NCBI GenBank assembly: GCA_023898465.1
Contig: CP060223.1
Coordinates: 800,001-864,000, forward strand
Direction: 5' to 3'
Length of the DNA: 64,000 nucleotides
Origin: Candidatus Nomurabacteria bacterium
Lineage (GTDB): Bacteria; Patescibacteriota; Patescibacteriia; HK-STAS-PATE-3
Shown here: positions 18,558 through 56,619 of the stretch, one piece after another
Position numbering within the stretch: position 1 is the first letter of the stretch
Layout: each line of letters starts with the position of its first letter
Program-made: the position numbers and the translations under genes
The notes under the pieces: generated by a model
What the model was told of the DNA's origin: nothing
What the model saw: the letters and a program-made list of their open reading frames with translations, nothing else
Databases searched by the model: none

Positions 18558-20042
<1,485 letters not shown>

Positions 20043-45041: not shown

Positions 45042-45167
45042 CTTACGCATTGACAATTTTCGTATTTTAGGGTAGAATGCTCAGTCATAATCTGACACCG
45101 TTTTTTGACACCGTTGACGGAAAGTCGTCAACAAGAACTCACGCAACCCTATCAGAGGAGGGGCGTC

Positions 45168-45803
45168 ATGTGCGACTTGATCCGGGTATACTTCGACTGT
45201 ATGCGACACGGGGAGAGGGAGGGAGATCAACTCACCGCCCTCGGAACCAGGCAGGTCTCTGCCTCGGCTGAGGCCAACCTGGCTGGAACGCGCTATCTCT
45301 TGGCCTTCCACACAGGGATGACCCGCACTTACCAGACCGCCGAGACTATCCTTTCTACCCTGGAGGGGGCCGGCTCCTTGACCCCTCGAGCAGAAGAGGG
45401 CTTCGGCGTGGTTTGGGCACTGAATCAAAAGTGGCCTATCCAGACCGCCCAAGACCAGATCAAGAGTCTCGTAGCCAGCGGCGCTGCTGAGACTGCCGCT
45501 CTTTGGACCTCCTCCTGGCCACCCGCCCTCGCCATCCTTGGACGCTTCCTTGGCACGCTGGAGAAGTGGACAACCTATGCAGCCATGCGTGCTGCTGAAG
45601 ACGGATCACCGGTCGGTGATGGAGTCCGGTTCTTAGTGGCCAGCCACAGCCCCTGCGCTGAACTCGCCGCCCTCGATCCTTCCGCCACTCCGCGTCTCGG
45701 CCCGGCTGACGGTATCACCTACGAAATCGAGGTGGACATCAGAAACCTCGGGATAGTGATCACCTCCTCCGAGGTCTGGCGCTGCCCCGAAGGAGTCGAG
45801 TAG
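45168..45803 (+). CDS. histidine phosphatase superfamily (phosphoglycerate-mutase-like) protein
   Basis: RHGE catalytic motif in DCMRHGEREGDQLTALGTRQ. SD GAGGAGGGG. Flanked on both sides by REP-like copies. Confidence 0.55.
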   Translation: MCDLIRVYFDCMRHGEREGDQLTALGTRQVSASAEANLAGTRYLLAFHTGMTRTYQTAETILSTLEGAGSLTPRAEEGFGVVWALNQKWPIQTAQDQIKSLVASGAAETAALWTSSWPPALAILGRFLGTLEKWTTYAAMRAAEDGSPVGDGVRFLVASHSPCAELAALDPSATPRLGPADGITYEIEVDIRNLGIVITSSEVWRCPEGVE

Positions 45804-48427: not shown

Positions 48428-48994
48428 TTATGTAAAACCTTTTTCCTCATATGCGTGATAAGAAGACCAATTCCAATCCTTTGGATCTTTTACCAAGCTA
48501 GCACGTACTGGATTGTAGTGGATATAATGAATGAGATGGTGGAGATATTGGTCAGTATCTACTACGCGGTCATAAAAAGAATCTTGCCATATCTTTTTCA
48601 TGCGACGGCGGGACAGAGACGCCCCGCCTATATGTTTATTATTACCCATAGCCAAGGCGTCTCGGCCTTGGCGGGGTATATCGGCGTCTCGGCCTTGGCG
48701 AGACTTATACATTTGTTGAGTCGTATAACTTTTAATACTATGCATCACCTCCGACACATTCTTCTTCCCTATTATCTCAAACAACACATGGATGTGATCT
48801 GGCATCACCACGTAGGCTAGCAGCCGTATCCAATGTTTCTTATGCAAGAAGAACAGAGTCTCAACGACAATCCTGGAGAGTTCTTTATTCAAGAATAGCT
48901 TTTTCCGTCGGTGGGTATTTGCGGTGACAAAATACACCCTTGTTTCAGCGTTGTAGGTACGACGAAGACGAGACATGAGGACACCTCGTGCCAC
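48428..48994 (-). mobile_element. REP-associated tyrosine transposase (RAYT; IS200/IS605-like Y1 HUH) with in-frame REP-like insertion between HUH and Tyr motifs
   Basis: HUH motif MPDHIHVLF. Catalytic Tyr motif HYIHYNPV. REP copy 3 (48593-48700) lies in-frame inside the ORF and encodes …RQGRDADIPRQGRDALAMGNNKHIGGASLSRR…. Confidence 0.65.
48593..48700. repeat. REP-like palindromic element copy 3 (with tandem duplication of ggcgtctcggccttggcg) embedded in the RAYT ORF
   Basis: Sequence shared with copies 1 and 2. The duplicated 18-mer lies at 48656-48673 and 48683-48700. Confidence 0.5.
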
Positions 48995-49039: not shown

Positions 49040-49624
49040 CTACCCATACTTCGCCAGAAGTAATCGGGCTGCCTCGCGAATATCTTCCACCCGGTAAAAG
49101 ATAAACTTACCTTGCGTGCTAATGCCCCATTCTAGTATTAATCCCTTCTTCGGCATACGGCACGCCAAGAGAATACGTTGTTTTTCAGCAGGGCTAAGAA
49201 ATTTTTTTAACCCAATGCTTTGGGTGAGTTTACCTTTTTGATAGGTGTAACTAGCTGTCACTTTCCCATAGCGCATGAGGTTCACAATTGGGCCACGAGT
49301 TGCTTCAATAACTACGCGATCACGCTCCAGTAAAATTGTGCCGCCTTTTTTCCATTTCCATGAAGGGTAGACAACAAACAAGGCGCGATGAGGGTGCTCG
49401 CGCTGCAGACGATCAACAGTGGCGGCAACTTTACTTGGTGCCACCCAATTCGCATACAAGTTTTTCCACGGACCACCGCGTACTTCCACAGTGCGAATTG
49501 TCCAGCCACGATATGCATCAATGTTTTGAATACCACGCAGCTCTTTTGAAGAACGCACAAATTGCCACTCAGGATGAGGTAGACCAGCTGCGTCTATTTT
49601 CTTTAGCCCTTGTAGGATGGTCAT
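49040..49624 (-). CDS. mini ATP-grasp protein resembling the N-terminal nucleotide-binding domain of PEP synthase/PPDK (PPDK_N-like fragment)
   Basis: 194 aa. KIDAAGLPHPEWQFV resembles the GLPVPPGFV loop. FVVYPSWKWKKGGTILLERDRVVIEATRG resembles the Mg/ATP-binding strand. 4-nt overlap with the upstream paralogue. Confidence 0.4.
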   Translation of the reverse strand: MTILQGLKKIDAAGLPHPEWQFVRSSKELRGIQNIDAYRGWTIRTVEVRGGPWKNLYANWVAPSKVAATVDRLQREHPHRALFVVYPSWKWKKGGTILLERDRVVIEATRGPIVNLMRYGKVTASYTYQKGKLTQSIGLKKFLSPAEKQRILLACRMPKKGLILEWGISTQGKFIFYRVEDIREAARLLLAKYG

Positions 49625-51231
49625 AACTTACGGACAATTCCTTTCGTTGCATCGACCTCCACTTGGTCACCGTCTTTCAATACTTTGGTAGCAATCTTTG
49701 TGCCAATGACGCAGGGGATTTTTAGCTCCCGAGAAACAATGGCTGCATGCGAAGTTACGCCACCCTGCTCGGTCACAATCGCTGCAGCTTTTTTCATCGC
49801 TGCTACAATGTCCGGGTCAGTAGCAATCGAAACAAGAATATCACCGCGTTGCATTTTTGCCATATCCTTTGGACGAATAATAATCTTAACTCGTCCAGTC
49901 GCTTTTCCTACACAACCTGTCTGACCATGAAGCTCTTCACTTGATTCGTGCTTCATAGACTGCAACTGCTTCTTCATTCTCTTTGCTGCAGCGCCTACGA
50001 GAATAGTATCCCTATTCTTTTCACTGATGTAGACGCATTCTTTCACTCGTTGTTTCAGCATCGATCGAGATAAATGACCACGAGTTAAGGCGGCATGAAC
50101 TTCTTTAGGCAACATGAAGCGCATTTCTTTGAGTGAAATGTGGAGACGCCGGGCAATTTCTTTTTGCAAAAATTCCATTTTATAAAGTGCATATATCTGC
50201 GCAAAGCGACGATAAATTTTTGTTACCATGAAATCACCAAAGGCTAAGAAAAGCGTTTTCCATTTTCCGCTAATTCGGTATTGTCGCAGGTAGCGTTCAC
50301 GCAAACTATTTGCAGTCTGTAATTTCTTCTTTTCCTCTTTGAGCAACGCGGCGATGTCAGACTTCTGACCAATAAGTTTCACCAGCTCTTTTAGGTAGTA
50401 CGTAAAATGCGCAGTTTCACCAATCCACATCCTCGGTACATAGAAGTAGCTCGCATAATGCTTTTGTATACGTTTCAGTATTTCCGGACTTATCGCATCT
50501 ATCAATTGGTCAGCTCGCTGCTCTAGACCATGCTCAAATTCTTCGGTATGCGTTTGCCAGCCATAGGGTCCTGCTTCTTTATTTAAGAAAGTAGAATATA
50601 TATCAGCGAATAATTTTTTCTGTTTGGCATTTTTTTGTATGGCAAAAGCAATGTGCAAAAAATCTTCACGTTCTTTCTGAATCAGTGAAATGCTTCGTGG
50701 ATGAGTGAGCGCGACAAACACCTCATTTACTTTTGCTTCAGGTACTCCTTGCGTTGCTAAATACTGCTTCATCCGATCAGTGAGGTTGTTGTGAAACATA
50801 TCTGCAGCAACCGGTATCCAACACCACTGATAGTACTCCGTGTGCAAACGATCATGCTCAGTATATAATTGCCACAACTTAGTATTACTCTGCTTCTCTA
50901 AGCCCGTCTCGGGTAGCTTTTCAGTAAAGCGTCGTAAGCGATCTGCTTGATGCAGTATCTCTTTATTTACTTGTGTGGCAAAGGCAGGCTCTTGAATAAA
51001 ACGATTAACAATGTGATCGCCCTCGGTCTTCGCATCATCGTGATCATAATAAAACCAGAGATGGTAGCCCTGGTAATAAGTAGCCACTCGTTGATACGCT
51101 CGTCCATTCGGTTTTGCAAACTCATTAGTAAAACATGACAACCAGATTTGCGAAAAAGCAAAATCAATATCTGGAATATCCTCAGCTAGCATCCAATTGA
51201 TACTTTGCTTTTGTATTTTAGGAGAGCTCAT
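49621..51231 (-). CDS. PEP-utilising-enzyme mobile (phosphohistidine swivel) domain protein, paralogue 1
   Basis: 536 aa. C-terminus GGVTSHAAIVSRELKIPCVIGTKIATKVLKDGDQVEVDATKGIV. N-terminal 430 aa of unknown fold. Confidence 0.6.
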   Translation of the reverse strand: MSSPKIQKQSINWMLAEDIPDIDFAFSQIWLSCFTNEFAKPNGRAYQRVATYYQGYHLWFYYDHDDAKTEGDHIVNRFIQEPAFATQVNKEILHQADRLRRFTEKLPETGLEKQSNTKLWQLYTEHDRLHTEYYQWCWIPVAADMFHNNLTDRMKQYLATQGVPEAKVNEVFVALTHPRSISLIQKEREDFLHIAFAIQKNAKQKKLFADIYSTFLNKEAGPYGWQTHTEEFEHGLEQRADQLIDAISPEILKRIQKHYASYFYVPRMWIGETAHFTYYLKELVKLIGQKSDIAALLKEEKKKLQTANSLRERYLRQYRISGKWKTLFLAFGDFMVTKIYRRFAQIYALYKMEFLQKEIARRLHISLKEMRFMLPKEVHAALTRGHLSRSMLKQRVKECVYISEKNRDTILVGAAAKRMKKQLQSMKHESSEELHGQTGCVGKATGRVKIIIRPKDMAKMQRGDILVSIATDPDIVAAMKKAAAIVTEQGGVTSHAAIVSRELKIPCVIGTKIATKVLKDGDQVEVDATKGIVRKL

Positions 51232-52331
51232 GCTCCTAATCTTCGCACAATTCCCTGGTTCGCGTCTACTTCTACGAGATCGCCGCTTTGTAGACTACTG
51301 GTAGCAAATTTTGTACCAATAACGCAAGGAACTTTCAACTCCCGGGCTACGATTGAAGCGTGACTAGTCACTCCACCTTCATCAGTAACAATCGCCCCAG
51401 CTCGCTTCATGGCTGGTATATAACGCGGATCAGTCATTGAGGTTACTAAAATTTCGCCCTGGCGTAGTTTTGTAGCATCGGCGATTTTTTGAATTAAACG
51501 CACTTTGCCTTTTACCTTGCCAGGGAAAGCCACGTTGCCCTTGAGTAGCCCCTTCGTTGCTTTCGGTAATGACAAACCAAAGCGTTTCAATGCGCTAGCT
51601 GAATTTGAGTACGCATATACGTTTTTGCCTTGCTTCAACACAAAACGTTTTCTTCGATTACGTAGCCTTTTTATCGACGGGAGTTTTCCAGAATTTAAGT
51701 ACTCAGTAAATTCACTAAGTAGCAAATACTCCAAAACCTCTATTGCGAGCTTTTCAGACTTTTCAATTTGACGCAGTAATCTTTTCTGCAAATCAATACC
51801 TACCCGGTAAAAGTCAGCTCCTTGTGCACGGCCTTGTAAGAAGAGTTTCAGGACTGCGGGAGTAACTTGATCTGAAACAAACTCTGGCACTTCGATACAA
51901 GCAACTAAGAACGGTAGAGCATCGTGAAAATATTCATGCAATTGAAGTATCGCCGCTTTCGGATCAGCGTGCTCCTGTTGTACAAATATATTATACGAGC
52001 GAAGTAAGGCATCGTGCTGCTTTTTTTGCTGCTTCAGTTTTGCCAGCGTACCATGTGTTTTTACCCAACCTTGCGCTGCGCCTTGTAAATCTTCATCCGC
52101 CATAAAGTGCCATAAAACACCATTCTCAACATACACATGGATTGGGCGAATCTGATGCGAAAAAAAATCTCGTGAAGCTTTATTAAGAAATGCTTCAATA
52201 ACTACTGAGGTTGCTAATACAGTATAATCTCTTTGATGTGGGGTATAGTGAAGCTTCATAGCTTTTACTCTAGCACATAATTCAGCACTCTTATCAAGAA
52301 AGAGGCGGCAGTTCATATTGACTGCCGCCAT
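51228..52331 (-). CDS. PEP-utilising-enzyme mobile domain protein, paralogue 2 (shorter N-terminal region)
   Basis: 367 aa. C-terminus GGVTSHASIVARELKVPCVIGTKFATSSLQSGDLVEVDANQGIV. Confidence 0.6.
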   Translation of the reverse strand: MAAVNMNCRLFLDKSAELCARVKAMKLHYTPHQRDYTVLATSVVIEAFLNKASRDFFSHQIRPIHVYVENGVLWHFMADEDLQGAAQGWVKTHGTLAKLKQQKKQHDALLRSYNIFVQQEHADPKAAILQLHEYFHDALPFLVACIEVPEFVSDQVTPAVLKLFLQGRAQGADFYRVGIDLQKRLLRQIEKSEKLAIEVLEYLLLSEFTEYLNSGKLPSIKRLRNRRKRFVLKQGKNVYAYSNSASALKRFGLSLPKATKGLLKGNVAFPGKVKGKVRLIQKIADATKLRQGEILVTSMTDPRYIPAMKRAGAIVTDEGGVTSHASIVARELKVPCVIGTKFATSSLQSGDLVEVDANQGIVRRLGA

Positions 52332-52661
52332 GTAGACGCGAGCCCCACAGAGCTCTTTCCCTAGGTCTGTCTACCTGACCGAGTTCGCCCAAAGACGATC
52401 TCCTGCTGTTTACCTCTTTCGAGGTGGCTTGGACTTGCTCCGCATGAGGGGACAGCAGTTATTCCTCGCAACGGGGTCCCACACCCGAGACTTCCGGTTG
52501 GCCGTATCCGTTGCAGCTTCTTGAAGAACAATGCGGAGTCACCGCGAAGTCTCGATTAGGACAATGCCACCCGCTTCTTCATGAGAGAAACCTCCCTTCC
52601 ATCAAAAAGCCATGGCATTAAAAATAATACCACGCTGTACTTATACTGGCGAGCAATTTTT
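52332..52661. ncRNA. 330-nt ORF-free, GC-rich, highly structured spacer (candidate structured RNA of unknown class)
   Basis: Several nested helices: ctgctgt…acagcag, gcaacgg…ccgttgc, cgagacttc…gaagtctcg (pseudoknot-compatible). No ORF on either strand. Confidence 0.25.
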
Positions 52662-54227
52662 TTACAACTTTCTGACTAAACCCTTGGTAGCATCCACTTC
52701 CACCTTGTCACCATCCTTCAAAATCTTATTCGCTACCTTCGTCCCTACTACGCAGGGCACACCAAGCTCGCGCGAGACAATAGCCGCATGTGAAGTCAAA
52801 CCTCCGGCGTTGGTCACGATTGCAGCGGCTAGCTTCATTGCTGGTACCAGACTGGGATAGGTTGTCTCAGAAACCAAAATATCACCTTTTTTCATTTTTG
52901 GAATATCCGCCGGCACCTCAATAATTTTTACCGTACCAGAAGCAGCTCCCGGAGAAGCGCATGAACCCGTTAGCTCACTTGCCTCGGTGGTAATCAAGGT
53001 ATCCTCTTTAGGAATTTCTTTCATGAACTTCTTTGCCTTCTGACCAGTCAAAACGATATATTGCTTCTTATCGCAATACGCCACTGTCTCCCGAGTTCGC
53101 GCCAGCAGCTCTTTCATAGTCGGGATCGACTTCCCTTGGAGCAAATCCTCAATCTCCCATGAGTTCAGGGCTCGCACAGTTTCCAAAGTCAGCTTATGTC
53201 GCTGAGCAATTTCACGGAAGAATGGTTCATAGCAGTACATACCATGATAGAGTGCGCCTTTTCGAAATTCCTTTATGTACACTATTTCTTGTCCCATGCG
53301 GATGAGCTGCCATATATTGCCTTGGAGGTGTAGAGATTTTTTTAATCGAGCCTGTTTTTGCTTCAGGAGCCTTTCCTTCACCTTCATATCAGCCAAAATC
53401 TGTTTGGGTGACTCACCGCTCTTTAGTAATTCCCTCCAACGAGTGAGGAAGTAGCGAAAGGAATAAGCTGGCCCCTTATACGCGTAGGGAATCCATCGCC
53501 ATTTCTCATAGTGCGCTCGCAGTAAAGCAGCTACTTTTTGATCCACTTCTGCTAATCCCTTTTCGGCCTTTGCGATGGGCGAACGAAGTAGGTGATTTCG
53601 CACCTTAGCAGAGCGCCGAAGCTGATCAGTAATCTGCAAAAACTCTCTTTCCTCCTGCGCAGCAAAACTCAAGCGGGGTGGGCTAGTAAGTAAACTAAAT
53701 ATTTCCGGCAAGGTTGCTGAGTCACCATAACAATCAATTTGTTTCTTGAGCGCTGCTTCTATACCTGTTGACACGCGGGCCTGATCAGCATCAGCCAACC
53801 AAGTGACCGCCGCACCGACCCCGTGGGAAAGTACATGCCAGCGTAAGACCTTACGAAACTCTCGAAGTAACTGTACATCAGTCATCTCACGGATTGGCAG
53901 TGCATATAAATTCCGAGAAGCCTGCATGAAGTTGATTGACCAATCCTCAACCTGCTTCAAGGTCTTTAATCCCCATTGTGGCTTTTGCAACATCTTCTGC
54001 GATAAGCCATCGGCCTGGGTATCAAATTCAGATCGCCGAAACCACATCTGAGAAAAGTCACCTTTGTAGTAGGTAAAGTACTCACTCAGGTGTCCGCCGA
54101 GTCCCATTCGCTTCCATTCCAAAAGAAAAAAGCGAATCGGCGTCCCCATCATAAAAATAGTATTTTCAGTTATTTCAGCTGGGACAAACCACTTGTCACT
54201 TTGCTTTTTTATGGCCTTTTTACCCAT
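52662..54227 (-). CDS. PEP-utilising-enzyme mobile domain protein, paralogue 3
   Basis: 521 aa. C-terminus GGLTSHAAIVSRELGVPCVVGTKVANKILKDGDKVEVDATKGLV. N-terminal region collinear with paralogue 1. Confidence 0.6.
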   Translation of the reverse strand: MGKKAIKKQSDKWFVPAEITENTIFMMGTPIRFFLLEWKRMGLGGHLSEYFTYYKGDFSQMWFRRSEFDTQADGLSQKMLQKPQWGLKTLKQVEDWSINFMQASRNLYALPIREMTDVQLLREFRKVLRWHVLSHGVGAAVTWLADADQARVSTGIEAALKKQIDCYGDSATLPEIFSLLTSPPRLSFAAQEEREFLQITDQLRRSAKVRNHLLRSPIAKAEKGLAEVDQKVAALLRAHYEKWRWIPYAYKGPAYSFRYFLTRWRELLKSGESPKQILADMKVKERLLKQKQARLKKSLHLQGNIWQLIRMGQEIVYIKEFRKGALYHGMYCYEPFFREIAQRHKLTLETVRALNSWEIEDLLQGKSIPTMKELLARTRETVAYCDKKQYIVLTGQKAKKFMKEIPKEDTLITTEASELTGSCASPGAASGTVKIIEVPADIPKMKKGDILVSETTYPSLVPAMKLAAAIVTNAGGLTSHAAIVSRELGVPCVVGTKVANKILKDGDKVEVDATKGLVRKL

Positions 54228-56072: not shown

Positions 56073-56183
56073 CGCAACCCGAGGCGTCTACTTTCCCCAA
56101 GTAGGCGCCTTTCTTCTTGACTTTTTTATCTAAGTGGATAAACATGCCCACGGACACTGTTCGACAAACCATAGGAGGCGCAC

Positions 56184-56542: not shown

Positions 56543-56619
56543 GCCGCCATCGTCTAGTCTGGTCAGGACGCCAGGTTTTCATCCTGGTAACAGGGGTTCG
56601 AATCCCCTTGGCGGTACCA
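56543..56619 (+). tRNA. tRNA-Glu (anticodon UUC), CCA encoded
   Basis: Acceptor gccgcca/tggcggt. Anticodon stem ccagg/cctgg with loop ttTTCat. T-arm agggg-ttcgaat-cccct. 3' ACCA. Confidence 0.85.

Follow-up and report, generated by a model that had tools for sequence, protein, structure and literature searches.

Gene organization of the locus

A 64,000-nt stretch of the genome of a Candidatus Nomurabacteria bacterium (assembly GCA_023898465.1, contig CP060223.1, positions 800,001 to 864,000), referred to here as the window, carries four minus-strand open reading frames (ORFs) within positions 49040-54227, which are called A, B, C and D (Table 1). Three of them (A, B and C) encode proteins that end in a phosphohistidine swivel domain, as found in phosphoenolpyruvate (PEP) synthase, PPDK and rifampin phosphotransferase (RPH), and the fourth encodes a very small protein with an ATP-grasp fold. 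The cluster probably encodes an RPH / HpeHI-type dikinase for small molecules that has several components, with D serving A, B and C. The contig belongs to a metagenome-assembled genome and is 1.08 Mb long, and exact protein matches carry the locus tags H6760_04220 to 04230.

An earlier note on this DNA, made from the letters alone, had described the 194-aa gene as translationally coupled by ATGA overlaps. Such overlaps are present in the window at two junctions, B/C and C/D, but coupling does not extend to A: the spacer between A and B opens with a terminator-like hairpin directly 3' of A and probably separates two transcription units. The GC content of this spacer is 52% (42-47% in the genes), and its RNA folding is better than that of shuffled sequence (z-score -2.6). 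It has no match in Rfam, belongs to no repeat family and, compared by blastn and blastx with the window and the examined loci, matches nothing; the modest folding score is all that is left in favour of an RNA or repeat element. The idea that a degraded ATP-grasp or a gene fragment lies upstream of B was rejected, given that B orthologues are about 343 aa long.

Two gene starts need comment. The ORF of B permits the 367 aa given in the earlier note, but the protein most likely starts at M25 (52259), because about 40 orthologues measure 339-350 aa and cover 92-93% of the ORF; the public annotation, at 343 aa, agrees with these lengths. For C, the NCBI gene model has 392 aa. Judged by sequence comparison that start is too late and the predicted true length is 536 aa, because more than 100 listed homologues (52-60% identity) span the full 536 aa.

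Table 1. Genes, domains and other elements of the cluster (window coordinates).
Feature	Position	Strand	Description
Gene A	52662-54227	-	521 aa
A, N-domain	52983-54227	-	residues 1-415; helical, diverged
A, swivel domain	52665-52982	-
A, catalytic His480	52788-52790	-	PF00391 region
A-to-B spacer	52332-52661	-	330 nt; 52260-52661 (402 nt) if B starts at M25
Hairpin in spacer	52634-52611	-	terminator-like
Gene B, ORF	51228-52331	-	367 aa
Gene B, probable	51228-52259	-	343 aa
B, swivel domain	51231-51545	-
B, catalytic H324	51360-51362	-
Gene C	49621-51231	-	536 aa
C, helical domain	49957-51231	-	RPH-like
C, swivel domain	49624-49956	-
C, catalytic His495	49747-49749	-
Gene D	49040-49624	-	194 aa; minimal stand-alone ATP-grasp, putative ATP-binding subunit

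The acceptor proteins A, B and C

Pfam finds a single domain in each of the three proteins, PF00391 (PEP-utilizers) at the C-terminus (E 1.2e-25 in A, 4.8e-26 in B and 3.9e-26 in C), and the chains stop 5-7 residues past it. The catalytic motif TxxGG(L/V)TSHAA is present in all three, with the histidine at H480, H324 and H495, respectively, and the histidine motif GG..[SC]H is intact in every one of the 46 unique paralogues examined. Pfam detects no ATP-grasp in A, B or C, and the confident AlphaFold2 (AF2) model of C consists of a beta-hairpin, an all-helical domain and the swivel domain, with no ATP-grasp. In structure comparison this model matches the rifampin-binding and His domains of RPH at 16% identity, and no other solved structure matches C from end to end. 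The earlier note's account of three swivel proteins with a conserved histidine and no nucleotide-binding domain of their own thus stands.

The N-terminal domains tell a different story from the swivel domains. Across paralogues the swivel domains are about 50% identical, while the N-domains are 20-28% identical or undetectably related. Those of A and C are homologous throughout (about 20% identity over 431 aligned residues, BLASTP E 2e-13), in line with the earlier description of them as diverged paralogues. B is built differently: its first 160 residues or so are unique, and between them and the swivel domain stand the final helices of the RPH-like domain. When the B family is compared with the C family by hhalign, B 160-343 aligns to C 354-536 (probability 100%, E 1e-56), and for residues 1-160 neither BLAST nor hhalign detects homology to either A or C. 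NCBIfam gives only partial and far sub-threshold matches for A-C, to the central region of PEP synthase, to PRK08296 "hypothetical" models, to PigC/RedH and to RPH.

Clear orthologues of A and of C occur in other arrays of swivel paralogues (E 1e-97 to 1e-153), those of A in L004 (E 1e-115) and L009 (E 1e-97). The C homologues come from Patescibacteria and from DPANN archaea (Nanoarchaeota, Woesearchaeota). Some C-family orthologues, mostly from DPANN, carry N-terminal extensions of DNA-binding type (P0105, P0131, P0136, P0141, P0089, P0101 and P0056): HTH_3/XRE, winged helix or DUF2683-like ribbon-helix. In L022 the gene in front of the C orthologue is MazE/AbrB-like.

Protein D, a minimal ATP-grasp

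The AlphaFold model of D is highly confident (pLDDT 93.4), and 175 of its 194 residues superpose on HpeI, so the earlier idea that D keeps just one loop and one strand of the fold has to be given up. A Foldseek search with the model returned ATP-grasp enzymes in all of the top 50 places, although RPH was not ranked first. Homology of D to PPDK_N is seen only by profile-profile comparison and structure, and it depends on the breadth of the profile: with 39 sequences nothing significant was found in sequence searches, whereas a 127-sequence profile aligned D 36-185 to PPDK_N 106-314 (hhalign probability 81%, E 1.3e-5). The matched segments pair GWTIRT with VAVRSS, FVVYPSW..GG with VVIQKMI..SG, IEA..G with IEAGYGLGE, and LEWGI with DIEWAF. 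Used as a hidden Markov model (HMM), the same profile matched canonical PPDK_N domains at E 1.9e-8 and 1.4e-4. The residues most conserved among the 127 family members are R44, E107 and E165 (96-98%). R44 and E165 are the counterparts of R117 and E297 in RPH (R92 and E323 in PPDK), which are ligands of the ATP phosphate and Mg. The profile alignment, the HMM matches and these conserved residues therefore identify D as an ATP-grasp of the PPDK_N lineage that is without the N-terminal ~105 residues of PPDK_N and several of its loops. Its 194 aa compare with 314-340 aa for canonical stand-alone PPDK_N or HpeI-type subunits.

Homologues of D form 43 clusters of about 195 aa with 45-66% identity, and all named sources are Patescibacteria. 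A profile search of 1.84 billion representative proteins found only 111 relatives, nearly all of them stand-alone and 185-210 aa long. Among the unusual forms are a tandem D-D protein of 403 aa (P0255) and, in contig L016 (10001-10587), a homologue split into two overlapping ORFs of 83 and 114 aa, which is either a frameshift/pseudogene or an assembly error. A second, partial D copy lies on contig L015 of the same metagenome-assembled genome (MAG).

Linkage of D to swivel genes

Loci encoding D were collected from 15 genome-collection matches and contig look-ups and mapped by custom HMM and phmmer scans. In seven genomes D lies within an array of swivel paralogues: three in the window and in L012, six in L004/L011 and in L006, seven in L016, nine in L009 and as many as 12 in L001/L008. 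Neighbouring genes in these arrays mostly overlap or lie less than 25 nt apart. In other proteins the two functions are joined in one chain: a D-like domain is fused straight to a PF00391 swivel in P0195, P0206 and P0269 (321-347 aa), and in P0085 a full PPDK_N is joined to a C orthologue. The P0195, P0206 and P0269 fusions have no substrate-binding domain; together with the tandem D-D protein, such fusions may be self-charging phospho-carriers.

Three further arrays show what can stand in D's place. L024 and L025 each have six paralogues and L026 has two, and each array has one stand-alone canonical PPDK_N (314 aa in L024, 320 aa in L026) in the place that D takes in the window. Given the D arrays and this substitution, one ATP-grasp to many acceptors is a general layout, in which some lineages have D as a miniaturised stand-in for PPDK_N.

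Neighbouring and accessory genes

Phosphatase genes recur in the arrays. They include generic HAD-IA hydrolases; the HAD subfamily was dropped as a clue to the substrate, all matches being generic HAD-IA and below the cut-off. Arrays also contain a conserved protein that has an RHG(E/D) motif and measures about 290-308 aa (L004 2231-3115, L024 13966-14841, L025 12429-13355). Its members match each other (phmmer E ~1e-19) and nothing in Pfam, and it may be a divergent member of the histidine phosphatase superfamily. LMWPc and Metallophos genes occur in archaeal contexts. No such phosphatase gene adjoins the window cluster; a 232-aa ORF at 45105-45803, about 3.2 kb away, has an RHGE motif and a weak His_Phos_1 match (E 0.0055).

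A second kind of neighbour is related to nucleotide metabolism. In one Uhrbacteria-like lineage D lies in a dUTPase-ThyA-DHFR-D-(NDT-like or HAM1)-Tmk cluster (L002 6003-9692, L013 7294-11722, L014 373-4191), and in L027 (3870-16544) a five-paralogue swivel array sits between dCMP deaminase / AAA_18 kinase genes and Macro / FBPase / dUTPase / ThyX genes. This recurrent link to genes for pyrimidine deoxynucleoside triphosphates (dNTPs) may be meaningful. Synteny with SecE-NusG-L11-L1 or dNTP genes (L002, L024, L027) is not present in the window.

A gene for a REP-associated tyrosine transposase (RAYT; NF047646, E 4e-36) lies at 48428-48994 of the window, on the minus strand and 45 nt downstream of D. 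Another genome (L001 7419-7982 / L008 9419-9982) has a second, only distantly related RAYT (phmmer E 4e-12), 19 nt upstream of its D homologue, and this repeated adjacency may be linked to rearrangement or expansion of the arrays. An anti-phage role was rejected: none of A, B, C and D matches a PADLOC anti-phage model at E <= 0.01. Elsewhere the window has a complete bacterial 16S rRNA gene (18559-20042, minus strand), one tRNA (56543-56616, plus strand) and a 27-nt match to the viral frameshift element weev_FSE (56083-56109, minus strand; score 40.1 against a gathering threshold of 40) that is probably spurious.

Comparison with known systems

The closest described systems are PpsAB, CreHI and HpeHI, two-component dikinases that work in trans and that already established the split RPH-like architecture (PMC12167813). 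In the HpeHI-type cycle the ATP-grasp subunit presents ATP, and the swivel histidine of the acceptor takes the beta-phosphate, probably via a pyrophosphoryl intermediate, and then phosphorylates a phenolic substrate on the RPH-like domain. Mutation of the histidine abolishes activity, and the subunits interact only transiently. Phenol, cresol and hydroxyphenylethanones are among the substrates of characterised relatives (PMC12167813). In the Hpe pathway a NagD-like phosphatase later strips the phosphate.

The window cluster resembles these systems in three ways. Its ATP-grasp subunit is a protein on its own, homologous to PPDK_N and the ATP-binding domain of RPH; in its acceptors a helical domain like the rifampin-binding domain of RPH precedes a C-terminal swivel; and A, B and C all have a catalytic histidine close to the C-terminus, in a T/SxxGGxxxH motif. 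The differences are considerable. HpeI has about 340 aa, and D, in the hhalign comparison, is missing the N-terminal ~105 residues and loops of PPDK_N. HpeHI, CreHI and PpsAB are 1:1 pairs, whereas here one ATP-grasp gene goes with 3-12 acceptor paralogues. HpeH, CreH and PpsA share about 45% pairwise identity; A-C are not that close, with N-domains undetectably related by sequence, and they match the phenolic-kinase PRK08296 models over the swivel region only (90-101 bits against cut-offs of 578-730). Unlike the phenolic kinases, the window cluster has no carboxylase or aromatic-catabolism genes nearby, and the hosts, Patescibacteria and DPANN, have genomes of about 1 Mb.

Other relatives are more distant. 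RPH (PDB 5hv1, 5fbs) unites its domains in one chain of about 865 aa; here the parts are separate genes, with acceptors of 343-536 aa and a miniaturised ATP-grasp. Identity between RPH and the window proteins is 13-16%, and the NCBIfam models for RPH (NF041857 / NF000283) score far below their cut-offs (65-66 bits where 999 is required, and 47-49 bits where the cut-off is 1700). PEP synthase and PPDK share the homologous PF00391 swivel and an ATP-grasp of the PPDK_N lineage, and PEP synthase models give the best partial NCBIfam matches (E ~1e-37). These matches cover the central region only: A-C are without the C-terminal PEP/pyruvate-binding TIM barrel, and their substrate domain is helical, RPH-like and N-terminal to the swivel. 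PigC/RedH belong to the same ATP-grasp and swivel superfamily and activate a small-molecule oxygen. They give partial NCBIfam matches over the swivel region (E 1e-18 to 1e-25), but they are single polypeptides of about 880 aa that carry out a condensation reaction, and the scores here are 64-89 bits against cut-offs of at least 1300.

Proposed mechanism and its alternatives

Given these likenesses, a likely sequence of events would begin with D, the minimal ATP-grasp, binding Mg-ATP. The C-terminal swivel of A, B or C would dock onto D, and the swivel histidine (A H480, B H324, C H495) would attack the beta-phosphate of ATP. The gamma-phosphate would be released as inorganic phosphate (Pi), leaving phospho-histidine and AMP. 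The swivel would then return to its own N-domain and phosphorylate a hydroxyl group of a bound small molecule. In this scheme D and any one of A, B and C would together convert ATP and substrate to AMP, Pi and phospho-substrate, and a single ATP-loading subunit would be common to all paralogues. A different substrate would be expected for each paralogue, because the N-domains are strongly diverged and the swivel domains conserved. Gene linkage, the fusions and analogy with the known systems suggest that D would be supplied in trans and that several substrates would be used. Judging from the characterised relatives, small metabolites or xenobiotics with hydroxyl or phenolic groups are the probable substrates. 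The recurrence of HAD and RHG-type phosphatase genes suggests that the phosphate may be removed again later.

Several observations weigh against this scheme. As a single sequence, D has no match in Pfam (E <= 1), NCBIfam or PDB sequences, and no PF01326 (PPDK_N) match at the gathering threshold; BLASTP against a PPDK_N domain is insignificant (E 34), and a narrow D alignment compared by hhalign with one PPDK_N sequence gives a probability of 6%. K8, the equivalent of the N-terminal lysine, lacks conservation in the broad D family, whose positions 178 and 180 are variable too. D is also much rarer than the C orthologues (43 clusters against more than 100 listed), and so it is not a general partner of the C family. 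No swivel gene lies within 10 kb of D in L007, L010, L019 and L020, nor in L002, L013 and L014, where D stands between DHFR and thymidylate kinase. In L008 and L011 the paralogues could instead be charged by a canonical PPDK_N, the gene for which lies about 10 kb away from the D array, and many ATP-grasp enzymes are self-contained kinases or ligases. D might thus not be the ATP donor for A-C at all. It could act by itself or have some other partner (a nucleotide-related kinase or ligase would be one example), and the swivel proteins could be charged by a canonical PPDK_N encoded elsewhere. We consider this unlikely. Translational coupling joins D to swivel genes both in the window and in six other genomes, D fills the slot that PPDK_N holds in L024-L026, and D::swivel fusion proteins exist; at 194 aa it has no extra substrate-binding domain. 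The three ThyA-cluster loci, being close relatives with DHFR sequences very similar by eye, count as one observation.

Other explanations concern what the swivel proteins do. They could be regulatory phospho-carriers or sensors, passing phosphoryl groups to proteins or controlling transcription, and not metabolite kinases. The swivel domain is a protein phospho-carrier in Enzyme I of the phosphotransferase system (PTS), the D::swivel fusions have no substrate domain of any kind, SixA-like / RHG phosphatase-like genes recur in arrays, and the DPANN proteins P0105, P0089 and P0101 have HTH_3/XRE, winged-helix or ribbon-helix-like N-extensions. The window proteins, however, have no DNA-binding extension, no HPr-like or receiver partner was seen, C has an N-domain that superposes on the part of RPH that binds the small molecule, and arrays of up to 12 paralogues with hypervariable N-domains better fit diversification of substrates, all of which makes a regulatory role improbable. 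A genuine antibiotic resistance, with RPH enzymes in split form, is less probable again. The earlier note had hinted at rifamycin, and the full-length match of C to RPH alone among solved structures, the partial NCBIfam matches to RIF_Ptrans_rph and a survey reporting rph-like matches in CPR (candidate phyla radiation) genomes (PMC8651080) might be read that way. Nothing points to rifamycin specifically: the RIF_Ptrans_rph score is far under its cut-off, C shares just 16% identity with RPH, the characterised relatives also use phenol, cresol and hydroxyphenylethanones, and C orthologues at 52-60% identity across Patescibacteria and DPANN fit a core function over an accessory resistance function. 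The last explanation, that the genes are decaying and functionless remnants of a full-length PEP-synthase or RPH-like gene, might draw on the missing ATP-grasp in A-C, the small size of D, the RAYT gene next to D and the frameshift-split D in one MAG (L016). None of the four ORFs is broken, however, the catalytic motifs do not vary and the AF2 models of both C and D are confident, and conservation of the B, C and D families effectively refutes decay.

Novelty and significance

The earlier note had called the system undescribed. That no longer applies to the split architecture, which has been published (PMC12167813), and it still appears to apply to the 194-aa ATP-grasp family and to the one-to-many arrays in Patescibacteria and DPANN. 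In full-text literature searches no description was found of the small ATP-grasp family, of arrays of 3-12 acceptors with one common ATP-grasp, or of the prevalence of such arrays in the two groups; the only related item is the passing mention of rph-like matches in CPR genomes (PMC8651080).

Some Patescibacteria and DPANN devote 5-18 kb of very small genomes to these arrays. This investment, and the 52-60% identity that C-type orthologues keep between the two groups, together imply that the function, so far unassigned, is an important one. Reading the cluster as an RPH/HpeHI-type system gives it a testable chemistry (ATP -> AMP + Pi + phospho-metabolite), and the 194-aa protein as ATP-binding subunit would define a minimal system of D and one acceptor. 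D is among the smallest versions of the ATP-grasp aimed at a swivel histidine and could be useful for understanding and engineering modular kinases. The findings also correct the blanket labels "PEP-utilizing enzyme" and "PEP synthase" and the rph-like resistance calls in CPR genomes.

A broader proposal, which we offer tentatively and with some doubt, is that Patescibacteria, and probably DPANN too, possess a combinatorial dikinase battery: one ATP-loader (PPDK_N or D) would charge up to a dozen acceptors, whose hypervariable RPH-like domains would each capture a different host-derived small molecule, and HAD/RHG phosphatases would complete a cycle of trap and release or of detoxification. 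If so, the arrays would represent a general and undescribed strategy for scavenging or neutralising metabolites, to which these organisms would devote up to about 2% of a 1-Mb genome.

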